The notes under the pieces were generated by a model. It had not been told where the DNA came from. It searched no databases and worked only from the letters and a program-made list of their open reading frames with translations. DNA of 64,000 nucleotides from Gemmatimonadota bacterium (GTDB lineage Bacteria; Gemmatimonadota; Gemmatimonadetes; Longimicrobiales; Gaopeijiaceae). Of the stretch, positions 27,950 to 64,000 are shown one piece after another; position 1 is the stretch's first letter; every line of letters starts with the position of its first letter. A program made the translations under genes and the position numbers. The stretch spans positions 32,001-96,000 of the forward strand of contig JBDHHQ010000003.1 in assembly GCA_039589315.1 (NCBI GenBank). Reading direction: 5' to 3'.

Positions 27950-27978
27950 TCCCGCGGCTGTGATGACATGTCATTTAA

Positions 27979-27991: not shown

Positions 27992-28045
27992 TAGAGACCC
28001 ACGGCGCCGTCTGGAACACGGGAATCGGCGGATCTCCTCTTGGAT

Positions 28046-28064
28046 TCTGCCAGTGCCCTGCAAA
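28046..28064. promoter_or_regulatory. candidate PilR-type enhancer upstream of pilA
   Basis: TCTGCC-N7-TGCAAA, similar to TTTGCC-N7-GGCAAA at 21910; ~100 bp upstream of the -24 element. Confidence 0.5.
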
Positions 28065-28090
28065 AAACCACGCGGAAAACCCGTGCCGCG

Positions 28091-29935: not shown

Positions 29936-29948
29936 GGAGCTGGGCCGG

Positions 29949-30812: not shown

Positions 30813-30834
30813 CGGGTCGTCAGTTGGTGCGGGT

Positions 30835-32208: not shown

Positions 32209-32251
32209 CCTCGCGCCTCCTGACGCGTGCTTGGCCACCGTACCCGGCGTG

Positions 32252-33943
32252 CTACGCTACTTGCGCGCCGCCGTCGGCCGACCTGGGAAGATAGATGATG
32301 AACTCGGCTCCCCCCTCCGGGGCCCGCTCGACGAAGACGGCCCCGTGATGCGCCTCGACCGCGCGATGCACCACCGCGAGACCCATCCCACTCCCTCCCT
32401 CCCGGGTCGTGAAGAACGGATCGAAGATCCGCGATACCTGCTTCGGATCGATGCCGGGGCCCGAGTCCTGGACACTGAATCGCACGGGTGAGTCCACCGC
32501 TCCCTGCAACGCGCCCTCTCCTTCTGGCCGTGCCTGAAGCTGGACCCGCACGACACCCTCGAAGCCCGAGAACTGAACCGCGTTCAAGAGGAGGTTGAAG
32601 ACGGCACGGTGCAGGAGATCGCCGTCTCCCGGAATCCATACTTCCTCTTCGAGCCCGGAGCATTCGAGCCGGACCCCTCCGCCGACCTCGGGATGCTGTT
32701 CGAGGACGGCGGTGCACTCCCGGACCAACCGAGCGAAGTCGACCTCCTCCCGTTGGCCCATCTTGAGGGAGCTGAACTCGAGAAACTCGGTCAGCAGCCG
32801 GCTCAGCCGATCGGACTCGGTCAGCACCAGCCTTCCGAGCACCTCCCGGTCCTCTTCACCGAGGGTCGGCTTGGTGATCTGCTCGACGCTCGAACGGATC
32901 GACGCCAGCGGGTTCTTGATCTCGTGGGCGAGAGAGGCGGCCAGCTCGGCGATGACCTCGATGCGGTCGGCCCGCCGATCGAGAGCCTTCAGCTGCTCCT
33001 GGTCCGTGATGTCCTGGAAGATGGCCGTCACCGACGGCCGTTCCTCCGGATCGTGCGAGACCACGGTCGTGCTGATGCCCAGCGTGCTCTCCCTGCCACC
33101 GCGGCGCGCTACGGTCTTGAACCGCGCGAGGGGTCGTCGTTCCTCGGCCGTCCAGACGAGGACCTTGCCCAGGTCGGGCGCGACCTCCGCCACCGCCTCC
33201 AACACGGGTTGGGCGTCCCAGTCCTCCGCCTTGATGCCCAGGAGCTCCTCGCCCGCAGGGTTCAGGTACACGACCCCCCCCGAACCGTCCACGGTCAGGA
33301 TGCCCGTCTGGATGTTCGCCAGGATGTCGTCGGTGGTGATCCGCAGCCGTTGGAGCTGGGACTCGACCGTGCCGAGGGCGATGCCCGCCCGCCGGACCCG
33401 ATCGCCCAGCCATCCGGTGATGATGGCCACGAGGCCGAACAGGCCCATCTGCAGGAAGATCGGTGCCGAGAACGGCTCGCCGTGTCCCACCACCGCATCG
33501 GCAAAGTAGAACACGCTGCACAGAAACCCGACCAGCACTCCGCCGGGAAGCGGCAGGAGCAGAGCGCCCAGGCTGATGACGAGGATGTAGAGGGGAGCGA
33601 ACACACTGTCGCCGCCGCCGGTGTGGTGCACGAGCAGGGTGACGAGCAGCGAGTCGAAGAGGATCTGAAGGTAGAGGAACCCGACCGGTATCCGGCCCGC
33701 CATGGCTCGGGAGTACCACGCCGAGAGGGCGGTCATCCCCATCACGCCGGCAAACGCCCCTAAGAGGAGCAGGGAGATCACCGGCGGGTCGCCGCCCAAC
33801 CATCCGAGGGTCGCGGCCAGGAGCAGCGCCGTGGCCAGGGTGGCGCGCCCGAGGAACAGCCACCGAAGGAGATCCTCCTTGCCGAACGCCAGGCGAGACC
33901 CGGCGGGTTGGATCCTCAGATCGAGCCTCCCAACTAGAAACAT
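32252..33943 (-). CDS. pilS: PilS-like sensor histidine kinase (multi-TM, PAS, HisKA, HATPase)
   Basis: RWLFLGR, QILFDSLLVTLLVHHTGGGDSVFAPLY (PilS-type TM signature), AHEIKNPLASI, FDPFFTTR, GSGMGL; start uncertain. Confidence 0.87.
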   Translation of the reverse strand: MFLVGRLDLRIQPAGSRLAFGKEDLLRWLFLGRATLATALLLAATLGWLGGDPPVISLLLLGAFAGVMGMTALSAWYSRAMAGRIPVGFLYLQILFDSLLVTLLVHHTGGGDSVFAPLYILVISLGALLLPLPGGVLVGFLCSVFYFADAVVGHGEPFSAPIFLQMGLFGLVAIITGWLGDRVRRAGIALGTVESQLQRLRITTDDILANIQTGILTVDGSGGVVYLNPAGEELLGIKAEDWDAQPVLEAVAEVAPDLGKVLVWTAEERRPLARFKTVARRGGRESTLGISTTVVSHDPEERPSVTAIFQDITDQEQLKALDRRADRIEVIAELAASLAHEIKNPLASIRSSVEQITKPTLGEEDREVLGRLVLTESDRLSRLLTEFLEFSSLKMGQREEVDFARLVRECTAVLEQHPEVGGGVRLECSGLEEEVWIPGDGDLLHRAVFNLLLNAVQFSGFEGVVRVQLQARPEGEGALQGAVDSPVRFSVQDSGPGIDPKQVSRIFDPFFTTREGGSGMGLAVVHRAVEAHHGAVFVERAPEGGAEFIIYLPRSADGGAQVA

Positions 33944-50394: not shown

Positions 50395-51597
50395 CTACTG
50401 CACCGCGTTGATCATGTCGAAGATCGGCAGATACATCGCCACGATCATGCCGCCCACCACGACGCCCAGCACCACGATCATGACCGGCTCCATGGCGGCG
50501 AGCAGGGCCTCCACCGCGGCGTCCACTTCCTCGTCATAGAAGTCGGCGATCTTGGAGAGCATGTCGTCGAGCCCGCCGGTCTGCTCACCCACGTTGATCA
50601 TCTGGACGACCATGGGTGGGAATACGCCCGACGCCTTGAGCGGTCCGGAGATGGTGTCCCCACCCGCGATGGAGGCGCGAGAGCCCATGACCGCGTCGTG
50701 GATGACCTTGTTGCCCGCCGTCCGGGCCGTGATCTCCAGCCCCTCGAGGATGGACACGCCTGAGGAGACCAGGGTCCCCAGCGTCCGGGTGAAGCGCGCC
50801 ACCGCCGCTTTGCGCAGCAGGTCGCCCATGATCGGCACGCGGAGAAGGAGCCGATCGATGGCCAGACGTCCCTCATCGGTGCGGTACAACTGTCTCACGG
50901 CGAAGGCGCCGGCCCCGGCTGCAGCAGCGCACGCCCACCAGTAGGCCTGGAGGAAGGCGCTCGATCCGATCACGACTCGTGTCGGCAGCGGCAGCGGAAT
51001 GCCCGCGGAAGTGAACATCTGCTGAAAAGTCGGAATCACGAAGATGAGCAGGATCACCACGGCGGACACCGCCACCGTGAGGATCACGCCCGGGTAGATC
51101 ATGGCGCCCTTGATCTTCCGGATCAGCGCGTCGTTCTTCTCCAGGAACGTGGCAAGGCGCAGCAGAATGGTGTCCAGGATGCCCCCAGCCTCACCCGCAG
51201 CCACCATGTTGACGTACAGGTCGGTGAACACCTTCGAGTGTTTACGCATGGCGTCAGCCAGCGTGTGGCCGGATTCCACGTCATACAGGACGTCCTGGAT
51301 CACGGATCGCAGGTGGGTGTTCTCCGTCTGCTCGGCCAGAATGTCGAGGCTCTGCACCAGGGGCAGGCCCGCGTTGATCATCGTCGCGAACTGGCGGGTG
51401 AAGATCACGATATCCCGGGTCTTGATCCCGGTCCCGATCCGCAGGGAGATCTGACGTTCCTTCTGCCGCACGGTGACCGGAATCAGCCGCTGGCGATGAA
51501 GGTACTGGAGCACCTCCTCCTTGGTCCCCAGCTCGATCTCGCCGCTCCGGATATCACCCCCGGTGGCGGGCCGCGCGCTATAGGAAAACGTGGGCAT
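50395..51597 (-). CDS. pilC: type IV pilus platform protein PilC
   Basis: FTRQFATMINAGLPL, AGEAGGILD, KGAMIYP, ARFTRTLGTL, GEQTGGLDDML, MYLPIF. Confidence 0.95.
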   Translation of the reverse strand: MPTFSYSARPATGGDIRSGEIELGTKEEVLQYLHRQRLIPVTVRQKERQISLRIGTGIKTRDIVIFTRQFATMINAGLPLVQSLDILAEQTENTHLRSVIQDVLYDVESGHTLADAMRKHSKVFTDLYVNMVAAGEAGGILDTILLRLATFLEKNDALIRKIKGAMIYPGVILTVAVSAVVILLIFVIPTFQQMFTSAGIPLPLPTRVVIGSSAFLQAYWWACAAAAGAGAFAVRQLYRTDEGRLAIDRLLLRVPIMGDLLRKAAVARFTRTLGTLVSSGVSILEGLEITARTAGNKVIHDAVMGSRASIAGGDTISGPLKASGVFPPMVVQMINVGEQTGGLDDMLSKIADFYDEEVDAAVEALLAAMEPVMIVVLGVVVGGMIVAMYLPIFDMINAVQ

Positions 51598-51624
51598 GTG
51601 TCGGTCGTCCTGGTCGTCGGTTGA

Positions 51625-52764
51625 TTAGAGCTCGGGCCAATCCTCGCCCACTGCCTTCAACAGCTCGTTCGGATCCCCGGACCGCTTCACGGCATCCGAC
51701 AGCGAGATCTCCCCCTTCAGGTAGAGCATCTGCAGCGAGTCGTTCATGGTCTGCATGCCATGCTTCTTGCCGGCTTGCATGAGCGAGTAGATCTGGTGGA
51801 CCTTCTCCTCCCGGATCACGGCGCGGATCGCCGGGGTGCAGACCATGACCTCCGCCGCGGCCACGCGTCCTCTCCCGCGGGCCCGGGGGATCAGCGACTG
51901 CGTCACGACCCCCTCCAGCACGAACGCGAGCTGAGCCCGGATCTGGCTCTGTTGGTGAGCCGGGAACGCGTCGATGATGCGGTTGACGGACTCGGCGGCC
52001 GAGTTGGTGTGGAGCGTCGCCAGGACCAGATGACCCGTCTCGGCAATCGTCAGGGCCGCGGAGATCGTTTCGAGGTCCCGCATCTCGCCAACGAGGATGA
52101 CGTCCGGGTCCTGCCGCAGGGCGTACTTCAGTCCGGCCGAGAAGCTTTGCGTATCCGCCCCCACCTCACGCTGGTTCACCATGCAGTTCTGGTGCCGGTG
52201 GATGAACTCGATGGGGTCCTCCACCGTGATGACGTGGCCGCGCCGCTCTCGGTTGATCTTGTCCAGGAGCGACGCGAGCGTCGTCGACTTGCCCGAACCC
52301 GTGGGCCCGGTGACCAGGATCAGCCCGCGGGGCTTGTCCGCGAAGCCGGTCACCACCGCCGGAAGACCCAGCTCCCCGATGGACTTGATCTCGTACGGAA
52401 TCTGCCGGATGGCCAAGGCCACGCAGCCGCGCTGCTTGTAGCAGTTGCCACGGAAGCGGGAGAGGTTCTGCACGCCGAAGGAGAAGTCCAGCTCGTTCTC
52501 TGTTTCGAAACGCTTCTTCTGCGCCTCTGTGAGGATCGAGTACGCGAGGTTCAGCGTGTCCTTCGGCGTGAGCACGTGCTTGATGGCGGAATCCACGAGG
52601 TTGCCGTCGACCCGCAGCTTCGGCACTTCTCCGACCGTCACGTGGAGGTCGGAAGCCCCCCGCTGGATCACCTCCTGAAGGAGGGCCCGGAGGCTGAGCT
52701 CCTGCTGCTCCGGCTCCATTCCGCTCGTGCCCCTCGGGGCCGCGCTGGACGTAGTGCTCATCAA
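51625..52764 (-). CDS. pilT: pilus retraction ATPase PilT
   Basis: GASDLH, GPTGSGKST, TVEDPIE, ALRQDPD, GEMRD, TLHTN, AIRAVIRE (AIRNLIRE motif), GMQT. Confidence 0.95.
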   Translation of the reverse strand: MMSTTSSAAPRGTSGMEPEQQELSLRALLQEVIQRGASDLHVTVGEVPKLRVDGNLVDSAIKHVLTPKDTLNLAYSILTEAQKKRFETENELDFSFGVQNLSRFRGNCYKQRGCVALAIRQIPYEIKSIGELGLPAVVTGFADKPRGLILVTGPTGSGKSTTLASLLDKINRERRGHVITVEDPIEFIHRHQNCMVNQREVGADTQSFSAGLKYALRQDPDVILVGEMRDLETISAALTIAETGHLVLATLHTNSAAESVNRIIDAFPAHQQSQIRAQLAFVLEGVVTQSLIPRARGRGRVAAAEVMVCTPAIRAVIREEKVHQIYSLMQAGKKHGMQTMNDSLQMLYLKGEISLSDAVKRSGDPNELLKAVGEDWPEL

Positions 52765-54476
52765 GTCACCACCGACGTCTCTTTGAGGACCTCTTCCAGG
52801 GTGGTCAATCCCCGCTCCAGCTTCTTCAGGCCGTCCATTCGAAGCGTGAGCATGCCCTCGTCAATGGCCGCTTCGCGAAGCTCGTCGGTGCCGGACTCCT
52901 GCATGACGAGCTTCCGCATCCTCGAGCTCATGGCCATGACCTCGTACAGGCCCTGACGACCCCGGTAGCCGCTGCCCCCGCACTCGTCGCACCCCTCGCC
53001 GCGATAGAGGGTCACGCGATCCCTGAATCCGTCGGGTAGATGCGCGGCCTGTACGTAGTCTTCCGTGTAGCTCGCCTCGACCTTGCAGCGCTCACAGATG
53101 CGGCGTACCAGCCTCTGGGCGGTCACGAGGGAGAGTGCCGCGGCCACGTTGAACGGTTCGAGGCCCATGTCGATGAGTCGGGTGACCGTAGACGGGGCAT
53201 CGTTCGTGTGGAGGGTCGACAGCACGAGGTGACCGGTCAGCGCCGCTTTCACGGCGATGCCGCCCGTCTCCAGGTCCCGGATCTCACCGACCATGATCGT
53301 ATTGGGGTCCTGCCGGAGAAACGCCCGCAGGGCGGCCGCGAAGGTGAGACCGATCTGGGGGCGTACGAGGACCTGATTGATGCCGTGCAGGTTGTACTCG
53401 ACCGGATCCTCGGCCGTCATGATGTTGGTGTCCTCGGTGTTCACCCTGGAGAGGGCCGAGTACAGGGTCGTCGTCTTCCCGGATCCCGTGGGTCCCGTGA
53501 CCAGCACCATGCCGTAGGGTTGGGCGATGGCGTGCATGAAGTCGATCTCGGCCTTCGGCTCCATACCGAACTTCTGGAGGTCGAAGGTCAGGTTCCCCTG
53601 GTCGAGGATACGCAGCACGATCTTCTCGCCGAAGATCACGGGAAGCGTAGAGACACGGAAGTCGACTACGCGCTTCTTCATGCGCAGCTTGATGCGCCCG
53701 TCCTGAGGCACGCGCCGCTCGGCGATGTTCAAGTCGGCCAGGATCTTGATGCGGGAGGTCAGCGCCGCCTTCATCTTCATGGGAGGCTTCATGACCTCTT
53801 CGAGGGCACCGTCGATCCGATAGCGTACCCGGACTTCCTTCTCGAAAGGCTCGATGTGGATGTCGCTGACGCCCTTGTTGACGGCGTCGGTGAGGAGTCC
53901 GTTGATGAACTTCACCACAGGAGCCTGTTCCACCTGCTCCTGCAGCGACGCCATGTTGACGTCTTCTTCCTCGTCCTCGACGAACTCGACGTCCTCCGCG
54001 ATCAGGTCGCTGAGGATCTCCGCCATCCGGTCGTCGGCCTGGTCGTAGTACTTCTCGAGGTGCTTGCGAAGGGTGAACTCGCCGACGACGACCGGCTCTA
54101 CCTCCAACCGGGTGATGAACTTGACGTCGTCGATGGCCCCGAGATCCGACGGGTTGGCCATCGCTACGGTGAGGGTGCGGCCGACGCGCCGCAGGGGCAG
54201 CACCAGATGCTTGAACGCCACCTCGCCGGGGATGAGCCGCGCGATCTTCTCTTCCACGGTGACGCGGTCGAGATCCACGGCCGGCACGCGGTACTGCCGC
54301 GCCAGCATGCGCGTGATCTCTTCCTCCGCGAGGAAGCCGAGCTTCACCAGGGCGAACCCCACGCGCGTGTTGTGATCCCGCGCATCGGTCAGAGCCTCGC
54401 GAAGCTGAAGCTCCGTAATGAGGCCCTCGCTCACCAGGTGATCGCCGAGGCGGTCTTGGGCGACTTGCGTTGGCAT
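52761..54476 (-). CDS. pilB: pilus extension ATPase PilB (MshEN-like N-terminus)
   Basis: DRLGDHLVSEGLI, SDIHIEP, RVPQDGR, GPTGSGKTT, CERC/CDEC Zn motif, GYRGR; start MPTQ (ATG 54476). Confidence 0.95.
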   Translation of the reverse strand: MPTQVAQDRLGDHLVSEGLITELQLREALTDARDHNTRVGFALVKLGFLAEEEITRMLARQYRVPAVDLDRVTVEEKIARLIPGEVAFKHLVLPLRRVGRTLTVAMANPSDLGAIDDVKFITRLEVEPVVVGEFTLRKHLEKYYDQADDRMAEILSDLIAEDVEFVEDEEEDVNMASLQEQVEQAPVVKFINGLLTDAVNKGVSDIHIEPFEKEVRVRYRIDGALEEVMKPPMKMKAALTSRIKILADLNIAERRVPQDGRIKLRMKKRVVDFRVSTLPVIFGEKIVLRILDQGNLTFDLQKFGMEPKAEIDFMHAIAQPYGMVLVTGPTGSGKTTTLYSALSRVNTEDTNIMTAEDPVEYNLHGINQVLVRPQIGLTFAAALRAFLRQDPNTIMVGEIRDLETGGIAVKAALTGHLVLSTLHTNDAPSTVTRLIDMGLEPFNVAAALSLVTAQRLVRRICERCKVEASYTEDYVQAAHLPDGFRDRVTLYRGEGCDECGGSGYRGRQGLYEVMAMSSRMRKLVMQESGTDELREAAIDEGMLTLRMDGLKKLERGLTTLEEVLKETSVVT

Positions 54477-54544
54477 CGAGTGCGGTCGTTGGACGTTCCG
54501 ATTGGACCCGCCGCGGCGGGAGCCTTCCACTACCGACCCTTCCT

Positions 54545-54552
54545 TTATCGGC
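54545..54552 (-). promoter_or_regulatory. sigma28-like -10 element upstream of pilB
   Basis: minus strand GCCGATAA (FliA/SigD -10 consensus) ~70 nt before the pilB ATG; no clear TAAA -35. Confidence 0.35.
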
Positions 54553-55309
54553 AAGAGGTCTGTGGAACCGTAGCGCCGATGCATCGGCGAACGGGCGGTG
54601 AAAAAACATATGTTTGGTTTCCCCTCCCGTGTGTTCCCCTCGATCGGAGAGGCCGTCTCGCCGGGCCCGCCTTCACGTGCGGGCGGAGGCGATCGAGGGT
54701 CGCCTGGCCGATCCCGCGCACCTGCAGGAGATCGTCCACGGAGCGGAAGCCGCCGGACCGCTCCCGCACCCGCAGAATGCGCCGCGCCAGAGCGGGACCG
54801 ACGCCCGAAAGCGACTGCAACGCTGCCGAGTCCGCACGGTTCAAGTCGATGGCCGGGGACGCGTCACCCCGCTGCCCTGCCTGAGGTGCCCGGTCGAGCT
54901 CCAGGGGCACGCCTGTGGACAGGTCCAGCCGTTCCCCGACCTTCGCCAGCGTTGCCGGGCCGATCCCCCGCACGCGCAGCAGATCCTCGAGGCTGCGAAA
55001 CCCCCCGGTAGCCGATCGCGCCTCGACGATGGCCCGGGCGAGGCCGGGCCCCACGCCCGGCAAACGGTCCAGCTCCACCTCGGACGCCCGGTTGGGATCG
55101 AGGCGCTCGCCGGGGCCCAGGGGGCGATTGCGCAATGCCTCCTCGGCCCCCCGGGCGCGGCTCTCCTCCAGGAGACCCGGAAGCGCGTCGGCCGTATCCC
55201 AGGCCATAGGGGCTTCGACGCGCCGAAGCTCCACCCCGTACCGGATGGTCGAGGCCACCAGCAGCACGGCGGCAGCAGTCGAGAACGCTCGAGTTTCGGA
55301 AGCGGTCAC
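54545..55309 (-). CDS. comEA: ComEA-family DNA-binding protein with two helix-hairpin-helix domains
   Basis: N-terminal TM/signal; LDPNRASEVELDRLPGVGPGLARAI...FRSLEDLLRVRGIG and IDLNRADSAALQSLSGVGPALA...FRSVDDLLQVRGIG; GTG 55309 with GGAGGG RBS. Confidence 0.88.
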   Translation of the reverse strand: MTASETRAFSTAAAVLLVASTIRYGVELRRVEAPMAWDTADALPGLLEESRARGAEEALRNRPLGPGERLDPNRASEVELDRLPGVGPGLARAIVEARSATGGFRSLEDLLRVRGIGPATLAKVGERLDLSTGVPLELDRAPQAGQRGDASPAIDLNRADSAALQSLSGVGPALARRILRVRERSGGFRSVDDLLQVRGIGQATLDRLRPHVKAGPARRPLRSRGTHGRGNQTYVFSPPVRRCIGATVPQTSCR

Positions 55310-55401
55310 CCTCGTTCCCTCCGGGCGGGGTGGGGCCGGAGCCACACGACGTGACCAAAGCTCGAGCGGCGACGTGGGCGGGGCGATGGCCCAAAGAGAC
55401 G

Positions 55402-58400
55402 TCAGGGAATGAGGCCGGCCTGGAGGTTGAACTGTCCCCAGATCCCGAACTGCACCTGAGAGGAGCCGGCCCGGGTGCCGATGAAGGACTGACGATCGCT
55501 GAAGGTGAGGTTGAGCCCCATCTCGAACTGCTGAACCGCTGTGTCCACGGACACGTTCAGCGTGCGGTTGATCTGGTCGACGAACGCCGTACACGCCCCC
55601 TGGCCGGCGGTGACGCGACAGTCGAACTGGGAGGCGTACTGGAACCTGGCGATGAGCTGGATCGGCCGGTCGAGCCGTTCGCGCAGCCGCCCCGGCGGCC
55701 TGAACGAGGATGACACCGATACGTTGTGTGTCTGCCGCTCGCGTTCGGTGTCGCCGGCCGGATCGCGCCCCTCACCTCGCTGGAAGCTGCCCGAGTAGGA
55801 GGTGCTGACGTTGCCGGCCCACGTGATCGAGAGGTTGACCGGGATGCGGCGGTCCTCCTGGACCCGTAGCTGCTCGGCCGTTCCCCCCTGATCCGACTCC
55901 CGCCGCACCTCCTGGAATCCGGACGCCAGGGTGAGTCGCCTCACGACCGCGGACGCGATGCCGGGCAAGGTGAGGTTGGCGAAGCCGGCTTGCACGTCGG
56001 GCCACGTCCGCTCTTGATTCCCACGGCCGATCCGCTTGTCCAGGCTGTTCACGTTGGAACGGGCGTACTGCACGTCCACCGAGAAGCTCAGGGGCAGTTG
56101 GAGGCCCGAGGCCAGGGTCAACGACTCGCGATCCGTCACGAACGAGGCCGTGTCCCCGTCCAAGAAGCGGAACTGCTCCCGCCCGCCGAGTCCCAGCTGA
56201 TATCCGGCCCCGGGGTCCACGAGCTGGCGGCTGAAGCGGGACGTGATTCCGTCCAGCCAAGTGACCCGGAAGGGCGCCAGCGCCTGGAGCACCCACCGAC
56301 CGGCGCCGGTGAGCGCGGACTCGCCGTCCCGGGGTGCGTCGCCCAGCGCCGAACGAGCGAGGACCCGGGAATCCAGGGTCATGCCGGCGCGCCGATCCCG
56401 CTGGCTGTTCGCGTTCCGCCCGAGGGTAGACACCGTATCCGCGATCACGATCACCGAGTCGCCCTGCATGACGCTGTCCACCGGTGTGATGGTGGTCTGG
56501 ACGAAGGACGGGTTGCGGTCGGACCGGTAGCTGGTGTTCATCCCGAGGTCGAAACGCAACCAGTCCGTGACGCTTGGCCTCCAGCCGAGCTGAGTCCGCA
56601 CGACGCGGTTCGTCTCCCAGCCCACGTCCAGCCCGAGGAAGCGCGAACGTTCCTCGGCGATGACCCCCTGAGCCACGGTGTCGCGAATGGACTCGGCGGG
56701 CGGCAGCAGGTCCCGGGTCTCCGCGATCGCGAGGGAGGCGGTCAGCGACGCGAAGGGCCGGAGCGACAGGTCGGCGGTCGTCTCCAGGCCCTCGCGCGGA
56801 GAGAGCGTGGCGCTCACGATGCTGTCCCTCGGCAGCTCCAGGATCTGCTCGAACCGGAACGCCTCGTTGTCCTGACGGTTGTATGTGGCGCGCAAAGAGA
56901 AGCGGTCCGGCGTCCAGCGAAGCCGGCTGGCCAGGATCTGCTCCTCGAGCTGGCGGGGGAACAGAAAGCGGATGACCGGCTCCAAGAAGGACGGGATGTA
57001 ATCCAACTCCCGGGCGTCCAGGACACGGCCGTATCCGATGGCTCCGTCCAGCCCGGACGAGAGGCTGCTTGACGTCACGGTGGTCGATTGGGCAGAGGCG
57101 TAGCCGAGGCGGGCATCGAGACCGTCCAGCAGGATGGAGCCGATCGTGCTCGCCGTGGGGGTCCGTTTCCGGAACGCCATCTGCACCCGCGTCCGCCTCG
57201 ACCCCGTTTCCCGGAGGTTCGGGATCTCACCCGCCTGGATGTCGCTCTGAGGGAGGAAGAACGGATCCAGCCCCGTGGACGTGTGCTGCACCGTCAAGGG
57301 GATCTCCAGCCCCCACGGCGCAGGGGCGAAGCGTCCGAGCTGGAGGGTCGAGTTGACGCTCACGAGCTGGTCGCTCTGGTAGGAAGGGTCCGCCTTCAGC
57401 TGCCTGAAGAACGCGCCCCGGTCGGAGACCGACAGCCGGGCCGTGAGGACGTCGGCCGCCTGCAGATCCACGTCCACGTAGCCGGCGAGCCCAGGGTCGC
57501 GGACGCCCCCGGAGAGCCGGAACTCGTTGATCCAGAGCTCGCCCTCGATGGGAATGTCGCTCTGATTCAGCACACCGAGGGACATCTCCCGGACGGCATA
57601 CAGGTTCGGCGCCCGCCCACGGTCCCTGAGGACCACCGCGTACGTCGAATCCGCGCTCCACACCTCCCGGGGCGCATCTCCCGTGGCCAGGGGATTCAGG
57701 ATCAGCTCCTCCTCCGCCTGCCGGCGCAGGTCGAACCAGACCTCGAAGTCGATCACGTGCTCGGGCACCCAGTCGACGGGGGTCACAGCTTCCGGGTTCG
57801 CGGCAGGCGTGAGACGAGAGCGGTAGAGGTAGAAGTTCTCGGAGTCGTTGCCGACCTTCACGAAGAAATGGACCGGCAGCGCGGGATCCCAGTCCCCGTC
57901 CCGGGCCACGGCCCAGATTCGGGCCTGCCGGTAGGTGAGGAAGTTCCTGGGCCGTTGGGGGAAGCGGTTGAAGACCTCGACCCGCTCGCCGGGAGCCACC
58001 CCGTCGTACGTCAGGCCCAGAGACTGCTCGTTGAACTCGACGGAAATGGCGCCGAGGGCCGACGTGGGGTTGTCCAACTCCTCGAGCACGCCGGGTGGAG
58101 ACGAGTAGGCACCGCCCTTCGTCAGGCTGCTGGCCGGGCTCACCTCGAGTCTGCCGCCGCTGCCGAGGGTGTCTCCGCCCAGCCCACGCACGATCCCCGT
58201 CTGGGCCCGCTTCACCCAGCGGGAGCCCACCAGCTTCATCCGGGTGAGGAGCACCGCGTTCGACGCGGACGCGACGAACGTGATCCGGATGTGCTTCACC
58301 GAGCGCCAGTCTGCGTCCGTGACCAGGCCGTCCACGTTCGTCCCGTTCTCGCCCCGGAGCGCGAGACGGTACAGCTCGAAGTCGGTGCCGGTCTCGCCCT

Positions 58401-61400
58401 TGCCCCTAGCCAGGAACGGCGAAGTCCCATCGAAGGCCACGACGTAGCGGTAGTACCGCTCGGCGCCGTCCAGATTCCCGTTGCCGTCCAGGTCCTCGGT
58501 GTCCGCCCGCCCGTTGCCGCGCGTGCAGTTGGCCTCGGGAGCACCCACGATGTAGATGGTGCCGGGCGTGGCCAGGCAGTCCTCACCCCAGTTGCCCCGT
58601 GCGTCCGCCTGATCGCTCCACACTTCGCCGACGCTGAGCTGCGCCTCCTCGTCCCGGAGGCCCAGCCCCCAGGCCTGGCCGTTTTCCTTGACGCCGCTGG
58701 TGGCCCCGGCCGAGTCCACGAAGAACGCGTCCTCGCTCGCGCGGCCGACGTCGATGATCATGACGACCGAGTCCTCCTCCGCCACGCTGGCGTAGAACTC
58801 GAGGAACTCCATCCGCGTCAGGTCGAGCCCCGTCGTGCTCAACACCGTGGTGAAGGACGCCCATTTGTCGCGGGTGAGGTCCTCGTCGGCGCCCACGGTG
58901 GCCAGCATCACCTGATCCCGGGTGTTCGTCCCGGCTACGTTGATCTGCTGGTCGATGTCCTGGGGGAAGATCCCCTCGAACACCCGCCCGTCGGGCTGTA
59001 CCCAGGCGTGTTGCCACGTCAGCGTCGTCTTGTCCGTCTCGTCCAGCGCGGGCGGGAGGACCGTGCCCGCCCCGTCACGACGTCCGGGCACGCTGCCCAG
59101 TCTCCAGGACGTGCTGAGCACCGAGAGCGGCACGTCGGCGTTCCCGTCGAAGTCGTCGATGTAGACGTCACCCTGGGTGTTGGGGTTCGGCAGGGACATG
59201 GCCAGCTCGCCGGCCACACGGATCGATGAGGTCCCCGAATAGTGCAGGGCCGGTACCCGGTCCAGGAACCGGTCCAGCCACGAGGCACCGAAGTCCAAGC
59301 GTCCGTTGACGCCCCCCAGCGCCACGGCTTTCGGCTCCACGCCCAACTGAGGCCGCCGGACCAAGGCCTTCTCCCGCTGGAACAGCCCCAGGAGATTGAG
59401 GCTGCCACGCTCACCCATCTCGTAGTCCGCGTTGAAGCCGAAGACCGACGTGGGGGCGATCTGGAAGACCGTCTTCTGCTCCCAGGTGGCCCGGATGTCC
59501 GCGTTCGGCGCCACGGCGAAGAGGTTCTGGGCGTCCAGGAGGGTCACCTGCCCCACGTCGTAGTCGATGATGTAATCGACACGTGGCACCAGGAGCCGTT
59601 CTCCGAGGGAGATCCGCTCGCTGCCGTCCCGGATCCCCAGCGCACCGAGATTGAACGTGGAAACGAGGCCCTCGCTCCGCACGCGAAACGGAATCGTGAG
59701 GCGGAAGAGACCGCCGCCGGCCCGCTCCACCGGGTCCGGCGACTCGTAGATGACGCCGTTCGCGTCGTCACCGAGGATCGCCTTGGTGTCCTCGGCGGAC
59801 AGGTTGAGTGAGGGAACCGGCGGAGGATCCAGGAACGGCTGCAGCGTTCGGAACACCAGGAAGGTGCCGGACACGGGTGGCTGCTCCTGGAAGGAGTCGT
59901 CGACGGGCCGGTAGACCTGCGCCCGATCGAGCCGGTCGAACGGGGACTCCTCGTCGAGGCCGAAGAGCTTGAGGAAGGTGATGTCCTCGCCTGTGGGGGA
60001 CCGCTTGAAGGTGCGGCCCGCCCCGAGCTCGCCCAGGGAGACGGTGACGTCGACCGAGTTCACTTCCACGTCGTTGGAGCCCGAGATGCGATACACGTGG
60101 TGCATCTCCAGGGGCCAGGTCGGGGTGCCGGGTTGATGGCTCGCCCCGGAAGCCTTCAGGAGCTGGAGCCGCGGGCGGATCCCCTGGTTGTGGAGGCGCT
60201 CGGGGTTGTAGTCCCCGATGGAGTCCCCGGTGGCGGTGATGTAGGTCACCGCCAACATCTCGTCTCGCCGCAGGGGACTCCGCAGGGCGACCCAGAGGCC
60301 GCTGGGGTGGACGAAGTAGTCCGCGTCGGGCTGGAGGTAGCGGAACCACCCCGATTCCTGGATGGTGTCTCCGTCCAGCACCGCGAATCCGTCGGCCTGG
60401 ATGTAGCCCTGGACCTGCTGGCTCGTGATGGGGTCGTTCTCGAATCGGTAGACCTGTACCTGCTCGGTGCCGGGCACCAGCTCGGGAGGAGCCCGGGATC
60501 CGTCGAGGGACAGGATGTCGAAGTGCGGGTAGTCCTGGATCTCTGCCGGATCGAAGAGGAAGAAGTACTGGCCCTCCACGTAATCGGCGTCGTCCAGGAC
60601 CAACGTGTCCTCCTGCACGAAGGCCTGCTGCCCACCCGCACCGCTGAGCCGGAACTCCCGGGTGGAAAGGTCCCCCTTCTGCTGCGCCCACACGGCCTGG
60701 AAGTCCACGGGCCCGAGCTGTCCCGTGGTCTGGAAGCCGAAGTTCCCGGCCGGGATGCCCTCGGTGAGAAAGCGAGAGTTCGGGGGCAGCTGGTAACTGA
60801 CGTCACCCACTTCCAGGCGCTGGAGGATCTCGTCCTCGAGGCCCTGATAGTAGACGTTGATGTTGTTCGCAGCGGAGAACTCACGCGTCTGGTCGAAGTC
60901 CACGTTCACGTGGACCCTCTCCGATACGGTCCCGGCCACCTGCAGCCCGAACTGCAGCTCCGGGGTCAAGCGGGGGATGATGGGCGCGTTGCACGTGAAC
61001 TGAAGGCCGGTGTCGCAGGGGCGAAACGAGGTCCAGTCCCCGCCCATCTCGGCCCGGCCCCGGAGGCGCATCTGGAGGTCGGTGTATTGCGCGAAGAGGT
61101 CCTGCAGGGCGGCACCCGTGTCCAGACTGTCCCGTTCTTCCTCGGGCTCTCGAACGGGCTCGGGGGGGAGGAACGCTACCGTGTCCGCCTCCACTTCCCC
61201 TGCCGCTTCGGGATCGCCGGCCACCGGGCGCCCCACTCGAGGACTCAGCTCCACGGCCAGCCCCGACGACGAGGGCCTGGCCAGAGGGGCGAACCAGGGG
61301 CTGTCGGCCCCCGGCACCGCCGGAAGCTCGATTGCGAAGGGAAGCGGCATCCGCCGAAGGCCCAACTGCAGGAGCGGCGGCTCTGCCTCCGCCGCCTCCT

Positions 61401-61674
61401 GCGGTGGGCCTGCCTGGGGCGAAGTCGGCTCGGAAGCGGCAGCGGAGTCCAGGGCCGGTGCCGCGGCTGCCGAGTCGGCCACGGGCGTCGCCAGCGAATC
61501 GGCGCTCTGGCCTCGTGCCCCCGGGGCCGACAACAGAAGGAGCAGCATCCCCACGACCGGGACGATCGGCCGTCGCCCGGCGGGTGGGCCCGCGGCGGCG
61601 CCTGCCGGACCGGACGACGCTCCGGGGTGTAACGGGGGTGTTGAGGGGGGTGCTCTGTACCGCTCTAGAGTCAC
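55402..61674 (-). CDS. sprA: SprA/Sov-like giant outer-membrane beta-barrel (T9SS translocon homolog)
   Basis: 2090 aa; GTVSERVHVNVDFDQTREF..NNINVYYQGLEDEILQRLEVGDV, DYIIDYDVGQV, VYIDDFDG, TEDLDGNGNLD, GELWINEFRL, GYVDVDLQAADV resemble SprA repeats; amphipathic beta-strand C-terminus; true start may lie somewhat downstream of 61674. Confidence 0.8.
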   Translation of the reverse strand: MTLERYRAPPSTPPLHPGASSGPAGAAAGPPAGRRPIVPVVGMLLLLLSAPGARGQSADSLATPVADSAAAAPALDSAAASEPTSPQAGPPQEAAEAEPPLLQLGLRRMPLPFAIELPAVPGADSPWFAPLARPSSSGLAVELSPRVGRPVAGDPEAAGEVEADTVAFLPPEPVREPEEERDSLDTGAALQDLFAQYTDLQMRLRGRAEMGGDWTSFRPCDTGLQFTCNAPIIPRLTPELQFGLQVAGTVSERVHVNVDFDQTREFSAANNINVYYQGLEDEILQRLEVGDVSYQLPPNSRFLTEGIPAGNFGFQTTGQLGPVDFQAVWAQQKGDLSTREFRLSGAGGQQAFVQEDTLVLDDADYVEGQYFFLFDPAEIQDYPHFDILSLDGSRAPPELVPGTEQVQVYRFENDPITSQQVQGYIQADGFAVLDGDTIQESGWFRYLQPDADYFVHPSGLWVALRSPLRRDEMLAVTYITATGDSIGDYNPERLHNQGIRPRLQLLKASGASHQPGTPTWPLEMHHVYRISGSNDVEVNSVDVTVSLGELGAGRTFKRSPTGEDITFLKLFGLDEESPFDRLDRAQVYRPVDDSFQEQPPVSGTFLVFRTLQPFLDPPPVPSLNLSAEDTKAILGDDANGVIYESPDPVERAGGGLFRLTIPFRVRSEGLVSTFNLGALGIRDGSERISLGERLLVPRVDYIIDYDVGQVTLLDAQNLFAVAPNADIRATWEQKTVFQIAPTSVFGFNADYEMGERGSLNLLGLFQREKALVRRPQLGVEPKAVALGGVNGRLDFGASWLDRFLDRVPALHYSGTSSIRVAGELAMSLPNPNTQGDVYIDDFDGNADVPLSVLSTSWRLGSVPGRRDGAGTVLPPALDETDKTTLTWQHAWVQPDGRVFEGIFPQDIDQQINVAGTNTRDQVMLATVGADEDLTRDKWASFTTVLSTTGLDLTRMEFLEFYASVAEEDSVVMIIDVGRASEDAFFVDSAGATSGVKENGQAWGLGLRDEEAQLSVGEVWSDQADARGNWGEDCLATPGTIYIVGAPEANCTRGNGRADTEDLDGNGNLDGAERYYRYVVAFDGTSPFLARGKGETGTDFELYRLALRGENGTNVDGLVTDADWRSVKHIRITFVASASNAVLLTRMKLVGSRWVKRAQTGIVRGLGGDTLGSGGRLEVSPASSLTKGGAYSSPPGVLEELDNPTSALGAISVEFNEQSLGLTYDGVAPGERVEVFNRFPQRPRNFLTYRQARIWAVARDGDWDPALPVHFFVKVGNDSENFYLYRSRLTPAANPEAVTPVDWVPEHVIDFEVWFDLRRQAEEELILNPLATGDAPREVWSADSTYAVVLRDRGRAPNLYAVREMSLGVLNQSDIPIEGELWINEFRLSGGVRDPGLAGYVDVDLQAADVLTARLSVSDRGAFFRQLKADPSYQSDQLVSVNSTLQLGRFAPAPWGLEIPLTVQHTSTGLDPFFLPQSDIQAGEIPNLRETGSRRTRVQMAFRKRTPTASTIGSILLDGLDARLGYASAQSTTVTSSSLSSGLDGAIGYGRVLDARELDYIPSFLEPVIRFLFPRQLEEQILASRLRWTPDRFSLRATYNRQDNEAFRFEQILELPRDSIVSATLSPREGLETTADLSLRPFASLTASLAIAETRDLLPPAESIRDTVAQGVIAEERSRFLGLDVGWETNRVVRTQLGWRPSVTDWLRFDLGMNTSYRSDRNPSFVQTTITPVDSVMQGDSVIVIADTVSTLGRNANSQRDRRAGMTLDSRVLARSALGDAPRDGESALTGAGRWVLQALAPFRVTWLDGITSRFSRQLVDPGAGYQLGLGGREQFRFLDGDTASFVTDRESLTLASGLQLPLSFSVDVQYARSNVNSLDKRIGRGNQERTWPDVQAGFANLTLPGIASAVVRRLTLASGFQEVRRESDQGGTAEQLRVQEDRRIPVNLSITWAGNVSTSYSGSFQRGEGRDPAGDTERERQTHNVSVSSSFRPPGRLRERLDRPIQLIARFQYASQFDCRVTAGQGACTAFVDQINRTLNVSVDTAVQQFEMGLNLTFSDRQSFIGTRAGSSQVQFGIWGQFNLQAGLIP

Positions 61675-61728: not shown

Positions 61729-63168
61729 ATGGGGATTCTCACCAGATATCTAATTCGCTCCCACGTGGGGCCGTTCCTCTTCGCCCTGTCCGCGCTCACC
61801 GGGTTGTTGTTCGTCAACGCCATTGCACAGAGGCTGGAGGATCTGTTCGGCAAGGGGCTGGGTTGGAACACGATCGCGGAATTCGCGTTGCTGTCCCTCC
61901 CCCACACCGTGGCTCTCACCCTCCCAATGGCCGTGTTGGTGGCCGTTCTGTACACCTTCTCCACCCTCACGGCGGCCAACGAGCTCACGGCCATGTCCGC
62001 GGGCGGGGTCCGGCCGATGCGGCTGATGATCCCCATGTTGGGTGTAGGACTAATTCTGGCGCTCGGCATGCTGTACTTCAATGATCGGGTGCTTCCGGCA
62101 TCCAACCATCGACTCGCCGGCCTCCTCCTGGACATAGGTCAGAAGAGCCCCACGTTCCAGCTGCGGGAGCAGGTGCTGAACGAGATCGACGCCGAGGACG
62201 GCCGCAGCAAGTTCTTCCTCCAGGCCGCCCAGATCGATCCGGTGACGAACCAGCTGGCCGATGTGGTGATCTACGATCGGAGCCGCCCGGAGCGCTTCCG
62301 CACCATCTACGCCGACCGGGGCATCATGGCCTTCAACGCGCACCGGACGGACCTGTTCCTCACGCTCTCCGACGGGGTGGTCCTCCAAGCGGGCGAGGCA
62401 CGGCCGGAGGAGTTCCAGCGCATCCTCTTCGATCGACAGGTCATCCCGCTCCGTGGCGTCGGCGACGAGCTGGAGCGGCAGCGGGAGCGGGAGCAGCGCA
62501 GCGACAGGGAGATGACCATCCCCATGCTGGCCGAGGAAGCCCGGAACCGTGACGAGCAGCTCACGGAGATCGCGGCCGAGTCGTATCGGCGGTCGCGCTG
62601 GGCCGTCGAGCGGGCGCTCGGGCTCACGGATGCCCCGCCCGACTCCATGACGGAGGAAGCCGCGGCGGCCATGCAGATCCCCATCGAGAGGCGATCGGAC
62701 GGGAGCCTCCCGGCCGATCCGGTGATCCGCAACGTCTCCCTGAATCTTCGCACGCAGGCGAGCCGTCAGCAGGTCATGCGCCAGTCCGCGAACCGCTTCC
62801 GGGTCGAGATCCACAAGAAGTTCAGCCTCTCTTTCACCTGTCTGGTATTCGTGCTCATCGGCGCACCCCTGGCGATCCGGTTTCCCCGGGGCGGGGTTGG
62901 CATGGTGATCGCCTTCGCGCTCATGATCTTCGGCGTGTACTGGGTCGGGCTCATCGGAGGCGAGCGCATGGCCGACCGGGGTACGGTGACCCCCTTCGCG
63001 GCCATGTGGCTGCCGAACCTGATCTTCCTGATGCTGGGCGCGCTCGGCGCCCGGCAGATGGGGCAGGAGGCCGGCAACAACCGGGGCGGGAGCTGGGAGG
63101 AGGTCTCTTGGACCGTCCGCCAGGCGCTCGTCCGTCTGGTTCCCCGAGCGGCCAGGCGAACGACGTGA
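61729..63168 (+). CDS. lptF: LPS export ABC permease LptF-like
   Basis: ILTRYLIR, LTLPMAVLVAVL, NELTAMSAGG, VLPASN, VEIHKKFSL, IGAPL, AMWLPN. Confidence 0.88.
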   Translation: MGILTRYLIRSHVGPFLFALSALTGLLFVNAIAQRLEDLFGKGLGWNTIAEFALLSLPHTVALTLPMAVLVAVLYTFSTLTAANELTAMSAGGVRPMRLMIPMLGVGLILALGMLYFNDRVLPASNHRLAGLLLDIGQKSPTFQLREQVLNEIDAEDGRSKFFLQAAQIDPVTNQLADVVIYDRSRPERFRTIYADRGIMAFNAHRTDLFLTLSDGVVLQAGEARPEEFQRILFDRQVIPLRGVGDELERQREREQRSDREMTIPMLAEEARNRDEQLTEIAAESYRRSRWAVERALGLTDAPPDSMTEEAAAAMQIPIERRSDGSLPADPVIRNVSLNLRTQASRQQVMRQSANRFRVEIHKKFSLSFTCLVFVLIGAPLAIRFPRGGVGMVIAFALMIFGVYWVGLIGGERMADRGTVTPFAAMWLPNLIFLMLGALGARQMGQEAGNNRGGSWEEVSWTVRQALVRLVPRAARRTT

Positions 63169-64000
63169 TTCGCATCCTCGACCGCCTCGTCGCCAGGACG
63201 TTCCTCCGGATCTTCATCATCTTCATCCTGGGGGCGCCTGGTCTCTTCATCCTGGGGGACGTCACCGAGAAGCTGCACCGGTATCTGGACCGGGGGCTGA
63301 GCCTGGCCGACGTGGCCATGGGCTACCTGTACCAGATGCCGCTCTTCATCCTCTGGTCCTTCCCGATCGCGGCCCTGATCGCTGCGGTGTTCACCGTCCA
63401 GGGCATGACCGTCCACCGGGAGGTCGTGGCCGCCAAGGCCGGGGGCATCTCGTTCCACCGCCTCATCTTCCCGCTCGCGGTGCTGGGAGTCGGTTTGACC
63501 GGTGCGGCCCTCTACCTCACGGACATCGTTCCGGAGTCGAACAAACGGGCCGGACAGATCTTCCGCAACGAGGATCCCCGCCGGGAGTGGCGGTCCAACT
63601 TCGTATACCGGGCCTTTGACGGACGGACGCTGTCGGCGCGGCGCCTCACGGTCTCCAACGGACGGCTGGCCGGGTTGGCCATGGAGTCGGCGGGCTCGGA
63701 CCTGGAGCCCAGCCGCCATACGACGGCCGAAGAGGCCGTGTGGGACAGCACCAGCGGCTCTTGGACCCTGCTCAACGGGTACTACCGGCAATTCACGCCG
63801 GAGGGCCAGGAGATGGCGTTCCGCTTCGACGCCCTCCAACCGCGCTCGTTCACCGAGCGGCCCGACGAGCTGGTGGAGACACCGCCCCATGAAGACGAGA
63901 TGACGTACGCGGAGATGGGCCGGCTGGTGTCGATCATCGAGCGGACCGGGGGCGACGCCCGCCGGCTGCGCGTCCTCAGGGAGCAGAAGCTCGCGATCCC
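63165..64000 (+). CDS. lptG: LPS export ABC permease LptG-like (3' truncated by window end)
   Basis: GTG 63165 overlapping the lptF stop; IRILDRLVARTF, FPIAALIA, EVVAAKAGGISFHR, ends ...EQKLAI. Confidence 0.85.
   Translation, partial: MIRILDRLVARTFLRIFIIFILGAPGLFILGDVTEKLHRYLDRGLSLADVAMGYLYQMPLFILWSFPIAALIAAVFTVQGMTVHREVVAAKAGGISFHRLIFPLAVLGVGLTGAALYLTDIVPESNKRAGQIFRNEDPRREWRSNFVYRAFDGRTLSARRLTVSNGRLAGLAMESAGSDLEPSRHTTAEEAVWDSTSGSWTLLNGYYRQFTPEGQEMAFRFDALQPRSFTERPDELVETPPHEDEMTYAEMGRLVSIIERTGGDARRLRVLREQKLAI

Follow-up and report, generated by a model that had tools for sequence, protein, structure and literature searches.

A SprA-type translocon beside pilus and competence genes in Gemmatimonadota: a probable reduced type IX secretion system for which no GldLM-type energy source was found

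A gene for SprA (Sov), the outer-membrane translocon in type IX secretion systems (T9SS), lies in a Gemmatimonadota genome at the head of comEA, pilB, pilT and pilC. This arrangement raises the question of whether the pore works with the pilus and DNA-uptake machinery or serves protein secretion beside it. The locus was analysed in a window of 64,000 nucleotides, which is the whole stretch of DNA considered here, from the source genome (G000; 95% complete, 288 contigs).

The genes of the locus

The features of the window are listed below.

14112..18736, minus strand: pilM-N-O-P-Q, pilus alignment complex and secretin (PilQ and PilM by profile; N, O and P by position and size)
18951..33943, minus strand: minor pilins, a second PilS/PilR-like pair, pilA, TPR protein, glycosyltransferase, pilR and pilS (gene calls; names other than pilA read from translations, without a profile)
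27487-27930, minus strand: pilA (TIGR02532, over cut-off)
50395..51597, minus strand: pilC, platform protein (PF00482 twice)
51625..52764, minus strand: pilT, retraction ATPase (TIGR01420)
52761..54476, minus strand: pilB, type IVa pilus extension ATPase (TIGR02538)
54545..55309, minus strand: comEA, hydrophobic segment at the N terminus and two HhH domains; opens the pilus/competence block (PF12836 twice, TIGR00426)
55402..61674, minus strand: sprA/sov, T9SS outer-membrane translocon (TIGR04189; PDB 6H3I/8GL8 by sequence; half-model fold)
61729..63168, plus strand: LPS export permease of lptF type, running divergently from sprA; gene-order control (PF03739)
63165..64000, plus strand: lptG-type permease, running off the window (gene call; clusters with orthologues in 56 loci)

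An earlier note on this DNA had taken the large gene for a SprA-like gene of 2090 aa heading the unit, and the profile check agreed, with 443.2 bits against TIGR04189 (cut-off 200). The product also scored 59.7 bits against PF14349 (cut-off 27) and matched PDB 6H3I by sequence at an E value of 3e-32. When it was modelled as two halves (pLDDT 84 and 87), SprA was the best fold match of both (E 1e-38 and 1e-30), with low TM-scores (0.46 and 0.29); barrel closure lies beyond two-half models. The half-models contained about 36-37 long amphipathic strands in three blocks of 7, 4 and 25 or 26, a count for which two long DSSP elements were split by hand and a weakly amphipathic hairpin was left out. 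The open reading frame is intact, with 2090 aa from the first GTG and 2050 aa from the GTG at 61554; these starts leave 54 and 174 nt, respectively, to the divergent lptF, and the true start is probably 61554. The signal peptide ends before a Gln. A dN/dS of 0.105 between G075 and G120 indicated purifying selection. Judged by sequence and predicted fold, the large gene is a genuine SprA, the pore of type IX protein secretion.

The co-directional order with short gaps that the note had described was reproduced by the gene calls, which gave gaps of 92 and 68 nt, a 4-nt overlap and 27 nt along sprA-comEA-pilB-pilT-pilC. All four downstream frames are intact (ComEA 254 aa, PilB 571 aa, PilT 379 aa, PilC 400 aa). 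ComEA carries two HHH_3 stretches and scored 87.7 bits against TIGR00426 (cut-off 53.1) and 114 bits, below the cut-off of 152, against TIGR01259. PilB (725.8 bits, TIGR02538, cut-off 675.65), PilT (492 bits, TIGR01420, cut-off 319.1), PilC (222.7 bits, PF00482) and PilM (235 bits, TIGR01175) were also recognised by profile, and PilQ was over cut-off with PF00263 (135.6 bits), had AMIN in addition and reached 220 bits against 284 with TIGR02515. The genome holds PilB, PilT, PilC, PilM, the PilQ secretin, pilin, ComEA and ComEC, and the genes downstream of sprA form the front part of what is probably an ordinary type IVa pilus/competence cluster. In Myxococcus and Geobacter the cluster runs pilB-pilT-pilC-pilS-pilR-pilA. 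The present cluster resembles these in having PilB, PilT, PilC, PilS/R, PilA, PilMNOPQ and ComEA, with ComEC elsewhere, and differs from them in having a same-strand sprA at its head and in pilC being parted from pilS by about 16 kb of unrelated genes. A promoter and terminator scan was uninformative, giving neither a promoter-like site nor a terminator-like one on the minus strand.

Gene order and independent losses

The best 80 of 348 matches in a genome-collection scan were all close relatives, so 78 distant SprA loci were taken from metagenomes, drawn from the best 80 of 182. The SprA alignments kept 116 of 130 and 112 of 123 rows, about a dozen wrong-frame or partial frames being omitted from each. 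Since the genomes are kin and non-independent, presence and absence counts are not statistical tests.

Among the 50 phylum loci with at least 9 kb downstream of sprA, comEA was found in 46, pilT in 42, pilC in 41, pilB in 36 and all four in 33. The synteny is kept across the phylum, yet so is the divergent lptFG pair, which lay upstream of sprA in 59 of 60 loci. The sprA-pil order was also found in two distant lineages among the metagenome loci, and the adjacency is ancient, probably predating the split of Gemmatimonadota from its sister phyla. Of the distant clusters, 3 of 28 had pilB following sprA, compared with 11 of 36 for lptF, and an M28 peptidase gene lay beside sprA in 11 of 33. The commonest downstream neighbour of sprA was comEA: of the 55 distant loci, 27 had it at most 2.5 kb behind sprA, as did 12 of 31 clusters. 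It stood behind sprA without pilB in all five loci of family f10 and in seven distant clusters. Two PilB profile matches in distant loci (L335, L341) were discarded as dnaX-like by BLAST. Simple adjacency, which the earlier note had kept as a caveat, is the best fit, though this adjacency is ancient and conserved, not accidental.

The two gene sets were also lost separately. Of 121 phylum genomes, 97 gave a SprA match and 24 gave none; in the family of the source genome it was not found in 9 of 71. That family comprised 54 genomes with SprA and PilC, eight with SprA only, five with PilC only and four with neither. Loci were inspected in 9 of the 13 discordant genomes (G057 earlier), and 7 of the 13 were confirmed on contiguous DNA. 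Where sprA is missing, pilB and pilC were retained beside lptFG in 11 of 11 loci and comEA remained with them in 10; the same sprA-only loss was seen in four family genomes (G157, G172, G137, G160). In the opposite direction, the comEA-pilBTC block is gone from G057, G154 and G151, whose contiguous DNA still carries sprA and porV. Five genomes were not scored as losses of the block: in G124, G125, G109 and G181 the contig ends at sprA or close to it, and G182 has ATPase fragments at contig ends. Nor was G165 (PilC only), whose PilB/PilC locus is a different one, scored as a sprA loss.

The genome of G057, one contig at 100% completeness, has intact sprA, porV, DUF5683 and CTD-only genes and a cargo-porV cassette; it gave no match to PilB, PilT, PilM, PilC or ComEC, and comEA is lost too. 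Other PF00437 ATPases number five in G057, where they fail the PilB and PilT profiles, and six in G154; they are putative conjugative VirB11/TrbB types. The dN/dS of sprA in G057 was about 0.26, a 2.5-fold rise on this branch that was the third highest of 17 genes (control median 1.6), and sprA may have been mildly relaxed after the pilus was lost. In G119 the order is broken exactly between sprA and comEA, which moved with pilT. In 15 of 46 near loci pilB is lost and pilT-pilC still stand behind sprA; the pilB-less genomes checked retain pilMNOPQ and minor pilins, so that PilT and PilC there have a pilus to serve. The proposal that SprA had been repurposed with the pilus ATPases and ComEA is thus not supported, though a specific tie of sprA to comEA keeps a small probability, as the gene sets were lost independently in both directions and, in the family of 71 genomes, the parts of such a system were not inherited jointly. 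It is also opposed by the separate secretin PilQ and ComEC, and by the rarity of pilB beside sprA outside the phylum.

Type IX partners, cargo and the search for a motor

SprA travels with type IX parts (PorV, DUF5683) rather than with pilus genes. The earlier note had seen no porK/L/M/N, porV or recognisable CTD cargo in the window, and the gene calls showed no por or gld gene there; other contigs of the genome, however, carry porV and two CTD proteins. A first reading of G000 as lacking both, with PF19572 and TIGR04183 blank, was overturned by NF033709 and a CTD profile built from the phylum. The PorV of G000 (contig C38, 2061-3098) reached 108 bits with NF033709 (cut-off 90) and stayed under cut-off with the narrower PF19572 and NF033710. 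PorV-family proteins were over cut-off in 31 of 33 SprA-positive genomes against 1 of 16 SprA-negative ones; G083, the negative genome with PorV, and G044 are multi-contig genomes keeping era-porV.

A DUF5683 gene lies behind porV in G000 and behind the PorVs directly after porU in families f10-f12. It was present in 16 of 21 SprA-positive genomes (one weakly) and 1 of 20 SprA-negative ones. The protein had no solved relative (best E 0.26), and its Atlas clusters held only hypothetical or DUF5683 proteins, from Gemmatimonadota, Bacteroidota and Krumholzibacteriota. The two CTD proteins stood out among 5170 protein tails (E 3e-21 and 2e-19; best E of the reversed-tail control 0.37), both below the curated TIGR04183 cut-off (20.5 and 16.3 bits vs 23). 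One is an S8 protease without catalytic motifs. A CTD-only protein shares up to 51% identity with C-terminal domains of f10-f12 proteins, and its gene persists in 8 of 16 SprA-negative genomes. Going only by co-occurrence, DUF5683 could be an accessory subunit of the SprA system, and the CTD-only protein could be a plug or a housekeeping substrate. CTD matches numbered 24-35 per genome in f10, which has no pilBTC behind sprA, and 56-93 in f11/f12, which carry the full sprA-comEA-pilBTC order.

Fuller T9SS-part profiles, including PorU, were searched in five genomes (G000, G057, G005, G009, G012). PorU was over cut-off in G005, G009 and G012 (families f10-f12), and none was found in G000 or G057. 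PorP/SprF was not found in G000, G057 or G005 and gave sub-cut-off matches in G009 and G012. GldL and GldM (TIGR03513, TIGR03517), GldN, and GldK over its cut-off were each found in 0 of 5 genomes, and GldL_N and GldM_1st (PF22827, PF12081) in 0 of 121, several of them single-contig; no positive control gave a signal in any of these GldK/L/M/N searches, and SprA, PorV and PorU were easy to detect in the same way. The GldK matches in G005 covered the shared FGE-sulfatase part only, at less than 100 bits against a cut-off of 350. MotA/ExbB counts in 49 genomes (2-5 each) did not differ between SprA-positive and SprA-negative genomes, and therefore no dedicated motor was picked out by counting. 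In an f11/f12 cassette, seen in G009 and G012, a PorP-family carrier and its type B-like cargo are immediately followed by exbB- and exbD-like genes.

A search for a complete canonical T9SS elsewhere in G000 thus returned PorV and CTD proteins, and neither Gld parts nor PorU. The motor-less or ancestral T9SS-like pathway that the earlier note had put forward is supported by these results, with PorV co-occurring with SprA and GldK/L/M/N not found. The system is probably a reduced type IX secretion system, for which a GldLM-type energy source was not found.

Mechanism, rival readings and known systems

The large gene is probably the translocon of such a reduced system, and the downstream pilus/competence cluster its ancient neighbour. 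Cargo that bears a signal peptide and, at its C terminus, a CTD, as the two proteins found do, would cross the inner membrane by Sec. The folded CTD would then enter the SprA barrel and bind PorV loops at the lateral gate, a step shown in Flavobacterium to occur and to be energy-free, after which the PorV-cargo complex would exit the pore. Because the PorU sortase was not detected, the tag is probably uncut and the cargo would stay on a PorV-family carrier. DNA uptake would follow the standard route from PilQ through ComEA to ComEC. Excerpts of two cryo-EM papers place the energy demand at the step that frees PorV-cargo from SprA, for which GldLM and the GldK track are needed (PMC10994853, PMC12635249); here release would proceed without GldLM/GldKN. 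A general ExbBD/TonB- or Tol-type proton motor is our tentative first choice as its driver. A motor too diverged or novel for detection is a possible second, slow unaided release, enough for very few cargo, is a more doubtful third, and the pilus motor is at best an unlikely driver.

Four other readings were weighed. It is unlikely that this is a canonical T9SS with GldK/L/M/N hidden in assembly gaps or so diverged that Bacteroidota profiles miss them: the PorU and dozens of cargo in f10-f12 are a load suggesting an energised system, and the Gld searches had no working positive control, but those searches readily picked up SprA, PorV and PorU, the GldL_N/GldM_1st domains were found in none of the 121 genomes, and the G005 GldK matches reached only the sulfatase part. 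It is improbable that PilB/PilT/PilC power SprA in place of GldLM, through PilMNOP or a pseudopilus. The retained order within the phylum and in two distant lineages, the Gld genes not found, the full order in cargo-rich f11/f12, the pilT-pilC left behind sprA after pilB loss and the slightly raised sprA dN/dS in pilus-less G057 would all suit it; the three genomes with sprA and porV and no block, the PorU and cargo of f10 without pilBTC, the 3 of 28 distant clusters and the pilus left for PilT/PilC in pilB-less genomes argue the other way. The natural deletions exclude that the neighbouring pilus motor is generally required, and they indicate other candidates.

A decaying translocon with little secretory role in this family is about as improbable; PorU is not found, the two CTD proteins include a protease without catalytic motifs, and sprA was not found in some genomes, but intact frames of 2 kaa are under purifying selection and sprA is retained with porV in about four of five genomes. 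Least probable of all is SprA as a DNA-uptake channel or ComEA partner, with ComEA ratcheting DNA through the barrel. That comEA stands behind sprA so frequently (46 of 50 phylum loci), and in many cases with no pilB, invites this reading, but lptF and the M28 peptidase are retained equally often in distant clusters, comEA outlasts sprA deletion and moved with pilT in G119, and in G057 it went together with comEC and the pilus. PilQ is present, and the Flavobacterium barrel is capped outside and PorV-gated, as an excerpt of PMC10994853 has it; PorV tracks SprA here.

The reduced T9SS resembles SprA of Flavobacterium johnsoniae (PDB 6H3I, 6H3J, 8GL6, 8GL8) and Sov of Porphyromonas gingivalis in its over-cut-off profile and collinear matches, in the best fold match of both halves to F. 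johnsoniae SprA, with about 36 strands in three blocks by hand-adjusted count, and in encoding PorV and type A-like CTDs. It differs in a SprA about 300 aa shorter, a cargo set of two, GldK/L/M/N, PorU and PorP not found, and a neighbourhood of lptFG, comEA, pilBTC and, for most relatives, the M28 peptidase. In the excerpted text of PMC7323717, Bacteroidetes 'incertae sedis' sets likewise have Sov and PorV, with PorK/L/M/N not among the components found; they keep PorU, PorQ and PorZ, whereas here PorU appeared only in f10-f12 of the five genomes. The motor-less pattern is already hinted at in papers, and PMC5445135 makes no mention of Gemmatimonadota or sister phyla.

Gemmatimonadota keep the pore and its carrier together with cargo, which in some families runs to dozens and is accompanied by a sortase, and no GldLM/GldK was found. 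Possibly, SprA-PorV export of folded CTD proteins is ancestral in Gemmatimonadota and sister phyla, with a non-GldLM energiser, most plausibly of ExbBD/TonB type, and with DUF5683 and the CTD-only protein as undescribed subunits; if so, Bacteroidota would have gained the Gld rotary motor later. How a T9SS free of the rotary motor operates, and which came first, can be tested in cultured Gemmatimonadota, and the conserved CTD-only protein, DUF5683 and the ExbBD-PorP cassette are new leads.

Identity of SprA and its window

The SprA locus most likely belongs to a reduced type IX secretion system (T9SS) without its known motor, lying beside a standard pilus/competence cluster from which it is separable. 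In the genome under study (G000; 6.67 Mb, 95% complete; the window is C3:32001-96000), whose closest named relatives are Gemmatimonadota, with Longimicrobiales labels on many, sprA-comEA-pilB-pilT-pilC are all intact and run in one direction with gaps of 92, 68, -4 and 27 nt, as the earlier note had read them. The SprA assignment made there was upheld by a TIGR04189 score of 443 bits (cut-off 200) in the profile search, by a PDB match to Flavobacterium SprA in three collinear stretches (E 3e-32) and by the folds of two half-models. AlphaFold models of residues 195-1110 (116-row alignment) and 1100-2090 (112-row alignment) gave pLDDT values of 84 and 87, and SprA structures ranked first in both fold searches (8GL8, E 1e-38 and 1e-30), the next-ranked family following at E 9e-5 and 7e-6. 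The TM-scores to 8GL8 were low (0.29 and 0.46), which is expected because the models are half barrels. The predicted long amphipathic strands numbered 7 + 4 + 25 or 26, a count involving hand decisions on half-models rather than a closed barrel, compared with 36 strands in Flavobacterium SprA according to PMC10994853.

ComEA, PilB, PilT and PilC were each confirmed by profile. The pilS, pilR, pilA, minor pilin and pilMNOPQ genes lie 16-36 kb downstream of pilC in the same window, and the pilus therefore has its own secretin; the ComEC gene is on another contig. SprA was matched in 97 of 121 phylum genomes and in 62 of 71 genomes of the same family, and Calditrichota and TA06 records hold relatives already annotated as SprA. 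Genus g40 (loci L001-L003) scored 818-1251 bits on TIGR04189, far above other families, as would be expected if the seed of that model included a member of that lineage.

The window also encodes a lipoprotein-like protein (11352-14087, 911 aa) that separates pilQ from aroC, matches no Pfam family and was not seen at the equivalent place in the family f1 loci inspected; a GAF-domain protein (47651-50080, 809 aa) with no match to other families; and a Gly/Ala/Val-rich repeat protein (46290-47564, 424 aa) with weak LA_2272-repeat similarity.

Type IX partners and the motor search

The PorV/PorQ family (NF033709) exceeded its cut-off in 31 of 33 SprA-positive genomes (the other two scored 86 and 66) versus 1 of 16 SprA-negative ones, some best hits being cassette paralogues. 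The G000 neighbourhood on contig C38 reads era-porV-DUF5683-rnr...lolCDE-like...clpC-bamA-skp, where our own reading supplies every gene name except porV and DUF5683; families f10-f12 show porU-porV-DUF5683. With the query used, the DUF5683 gene was found in 16 of 21 SprA-positive versus 1 of 20 SprA-negative genomes. Two genomes, G083 and G044, depart from the pattern; both are in several contigs and retain porV, and their missing sprA probably reflects an assembly gap. Two CTD proteins were found in G000.

Type IX candidates in G000
L225:3143-4075 (contig C38): DUF5683 protein, directly behind porV, lost together with sprA
C1:18330-20288 (L223:10331-12289): CTD protein 1, S8-like
C26:53924-54424 (L224:9925-10425): CTD protein 2, signal peptide and CTD only

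The DUF5683 protein is a candidate T9SS accessory, so far undescribed. The CTD-only protein has a type A-like CTD with two insertions, is single-copy and usually adjoins a selB-like gene. It is better conserved than SprA (40-70% identity, 24 orthologues aligned) and matched 32 of 33 SprA-positive and 8 of 16 SprA-negative genomes, the matches in f10-f12 being tails of ordinary cargo. The S8-like protein lacks Asp, His and Ser in the three motifs that we take to be catalytic in subtilases, and judging by its sequence is probably a non-catalytic pseudo-protease. Elsewhere, five genomes carry, 10-20 kb upstream of sprA, cassettes of a TonB-dependent receptor, a 1300-aa CTD protein, a PorV paralogue and a GWxTD or OMP protein (L134-L138, L140), and f10 genomes hold 11-26 PorV-family matches each.

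The proposal of a motor-less T9SS-like pathway was supported: PorV and CTD proteins are present, and GldK/L/M/N were not found by profile. GldL, GldM and GldN matched none of five genomes, three of them cargo-rich, and GldK had no hit over cut-off in the same five; GldL_N and GldM_1st matched none of 121 phylum genomes. As no T9SS control genome was included, these results mean 'not found' rather than 'absent'. ExbB/MotA gene counts did not track SprA presence. G009 and G012 share an eight-gene cassette (L404:3534-14287, contig C39; L403:773-11854, contig C83): a TPR protein, a large FG-GAP cargo whose CHU_C tail is type B-like, a PorP/SprF-family barrel (PF11751, 57-65 bits) with a long C-terminal extension, ExbB/MotA-like and ExbD-like proteins, and three further genes, one TPR and two without family. 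Here a T9SS carrier adjoins the genes of a proton-motor pair, and neither genome gave a Gld match; this is a lead, from two genomes, towards an ExbBD-type energiser. The cassette's PorP, ExbB and ExbD genes had no match in G000.

Work on Flavobacterium describes energy-free loading of the CTD onto PorV inside the pore with energy-dependent release (PMC10994853) and energisation linked to GldK (PMC12635249). Carried over to G000, loading would likewise need no energy and release would require it. Secretion itself, cargo retention on PorV and the energy source are putative; gene presence, gene identity and separate inheritance were observed. Other reports state that T9SSs may occur in Gemmatimonadetes and other FCB phyla (PMC11285876), that Bacteroidetes incertae sedis have Sov, PorU and PorV without PorK/L/M/N (PMC7323717), that complete T9SSs were found in Bacteroidetes only (PMC4793230), that T9SS tags are proposed in Fibrobacter (PMC6851124), and that P. 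gingivalis vesicles contain a DUF5683 protein of unknown role (PMC13744359). For Gemmatimonadota, a literature search that left most subscription papers outside found nothing on the genes around sprA or on how the T9SS is energised.

Conservation of gene order

Sixty of the 97 phylum loci were drawn, with preference for long contigs and including all families with known coordinates. Divergent lptF/G lay upstream of sprA in 59 of 60. Among the 50 with at least 9 kb downstream, comEA followed in 46, pilT in 42, pilC in 41 and pilB in 36, and an M28 peptidase, presumably glutaminyl-cyclase-like, lay between sprA and comEA in 33. The synteny check suggested earlier thus found the sprA-comEA-pilB order conserved across the phylum, with all four genes in 33/50 loci; gene content varied beyond lptG and pilC. 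A set of 46 more closely related loci, each with 6 kb of downstream sequence and some shared with the first set, had comEA behind sprA in 44 and pilB in 29. The G000 M28 peptidase has relocated to C9:74433-75332 (L227:4434-5333), and many secreted proteins, including SprA, appear to start with Gln after the signal peptide.

The distant set comprised 78 metagenome loci from the best 80 of 182, and all except one of them shared 37% identity or less with the 12 references from Gemmatimonadota. Per locus (and per 60%-identity cluster), comEA followed sprA in 27/55 (12/31), M28 in 19/57 (11/33) and pilB in 9/43 (3/28), two of 11 PilB matches having been dropped as dnaX-like, and lptF/G preceded it in 25/67 (11/36). 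The complete order, lptGF divergent from sprA-M28-comEA-pilB-pilT-pilC, occurred in one distant locus (L337), and the same order minus comEA in another distant lineage; the gene order is therefore ancient. On either side, the order was less well conserved the farther a gene lay from sprA. Retention of comEA did not exceed that of lptF, a gene that plays no role in DNA uptake and serves as a control for conserved order. L337 and L375-L387 carry two tandem pilB genes behind sprA.

Separate inheritance of sprA and the pilus block

The sprA and pilus/ComEA genes are not inherited together. The earlier suggestion that SprA was repurposed with the pilus ATPases and ComEA was not supported, because sprA and the pilus block were lost independently in both directions. 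In 11 of 11 loci of SprA-negative genomes, pilB and pilC stood next to lptFG with only sprA missing (comEA called in 10); four more such pil-retaining loci came from the family of G000 (G157, G172, G137, G160), and PilB exceeded its cut-off in 12 of 16 SprA-negative genomes. Conversely, G057, a single contig at 100% completeness, lacks the whole comEA-to-pilQ stretch, and profiles for PilB, PilT, PilM, PilC and ComEC found no match in it; it retains intact sprA (2049 aa), porV and DUF5683, together with the CTD-only gene and a cassette of TonB receptor, cargo and porV paralogue. In G154 and G151 (porV 79 and 98 bits, no PilC match), sprA is followed on contiguous DNA by genes found beyond pilC in relatives. 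PF00437 ATPases numbered five in G057, six in G154, both sets read as conjugative types, and zero in G151. The break in G119 falls precisely between sprA and comEA, and f10 has sprA-comEA without pilBTC in 5/5 loci, its genomes still carrying PorU and 24-35 CTD matches. Across 71 family genomes, 54 had both SprA and PilC, 8 SprA only and 5 PilC only, and 4 lacked both; contiguous DNA confirmed the discordance in 7 of these 13 genomes. The tallies take in the unpublished genomes G053 and G093, and no claim depends on those alone.

The dN/dS of sprA was 0.26 on the G057 branch versus 0.105 between two pilus-bearing congeners, a 2.5-fold rise ranking third of 17 genes (13 controls: median 1.6-fold, 0.6-4.4). 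Selection on this branch is purifying, and may have relaxed slightly.

A further variant lost pilB from the locus and kept comEA-pilT-pilC, pilMNOPQ and minor pilins (L032-L035, L038, L040; within L143-L222, 15 of 46 loci). PilC is called ~50 aa shorter there, and PilT/PilC diverge faster. These relatives have a pilus without the canonical extension ATPase, and most carry a second PilB-like gene.
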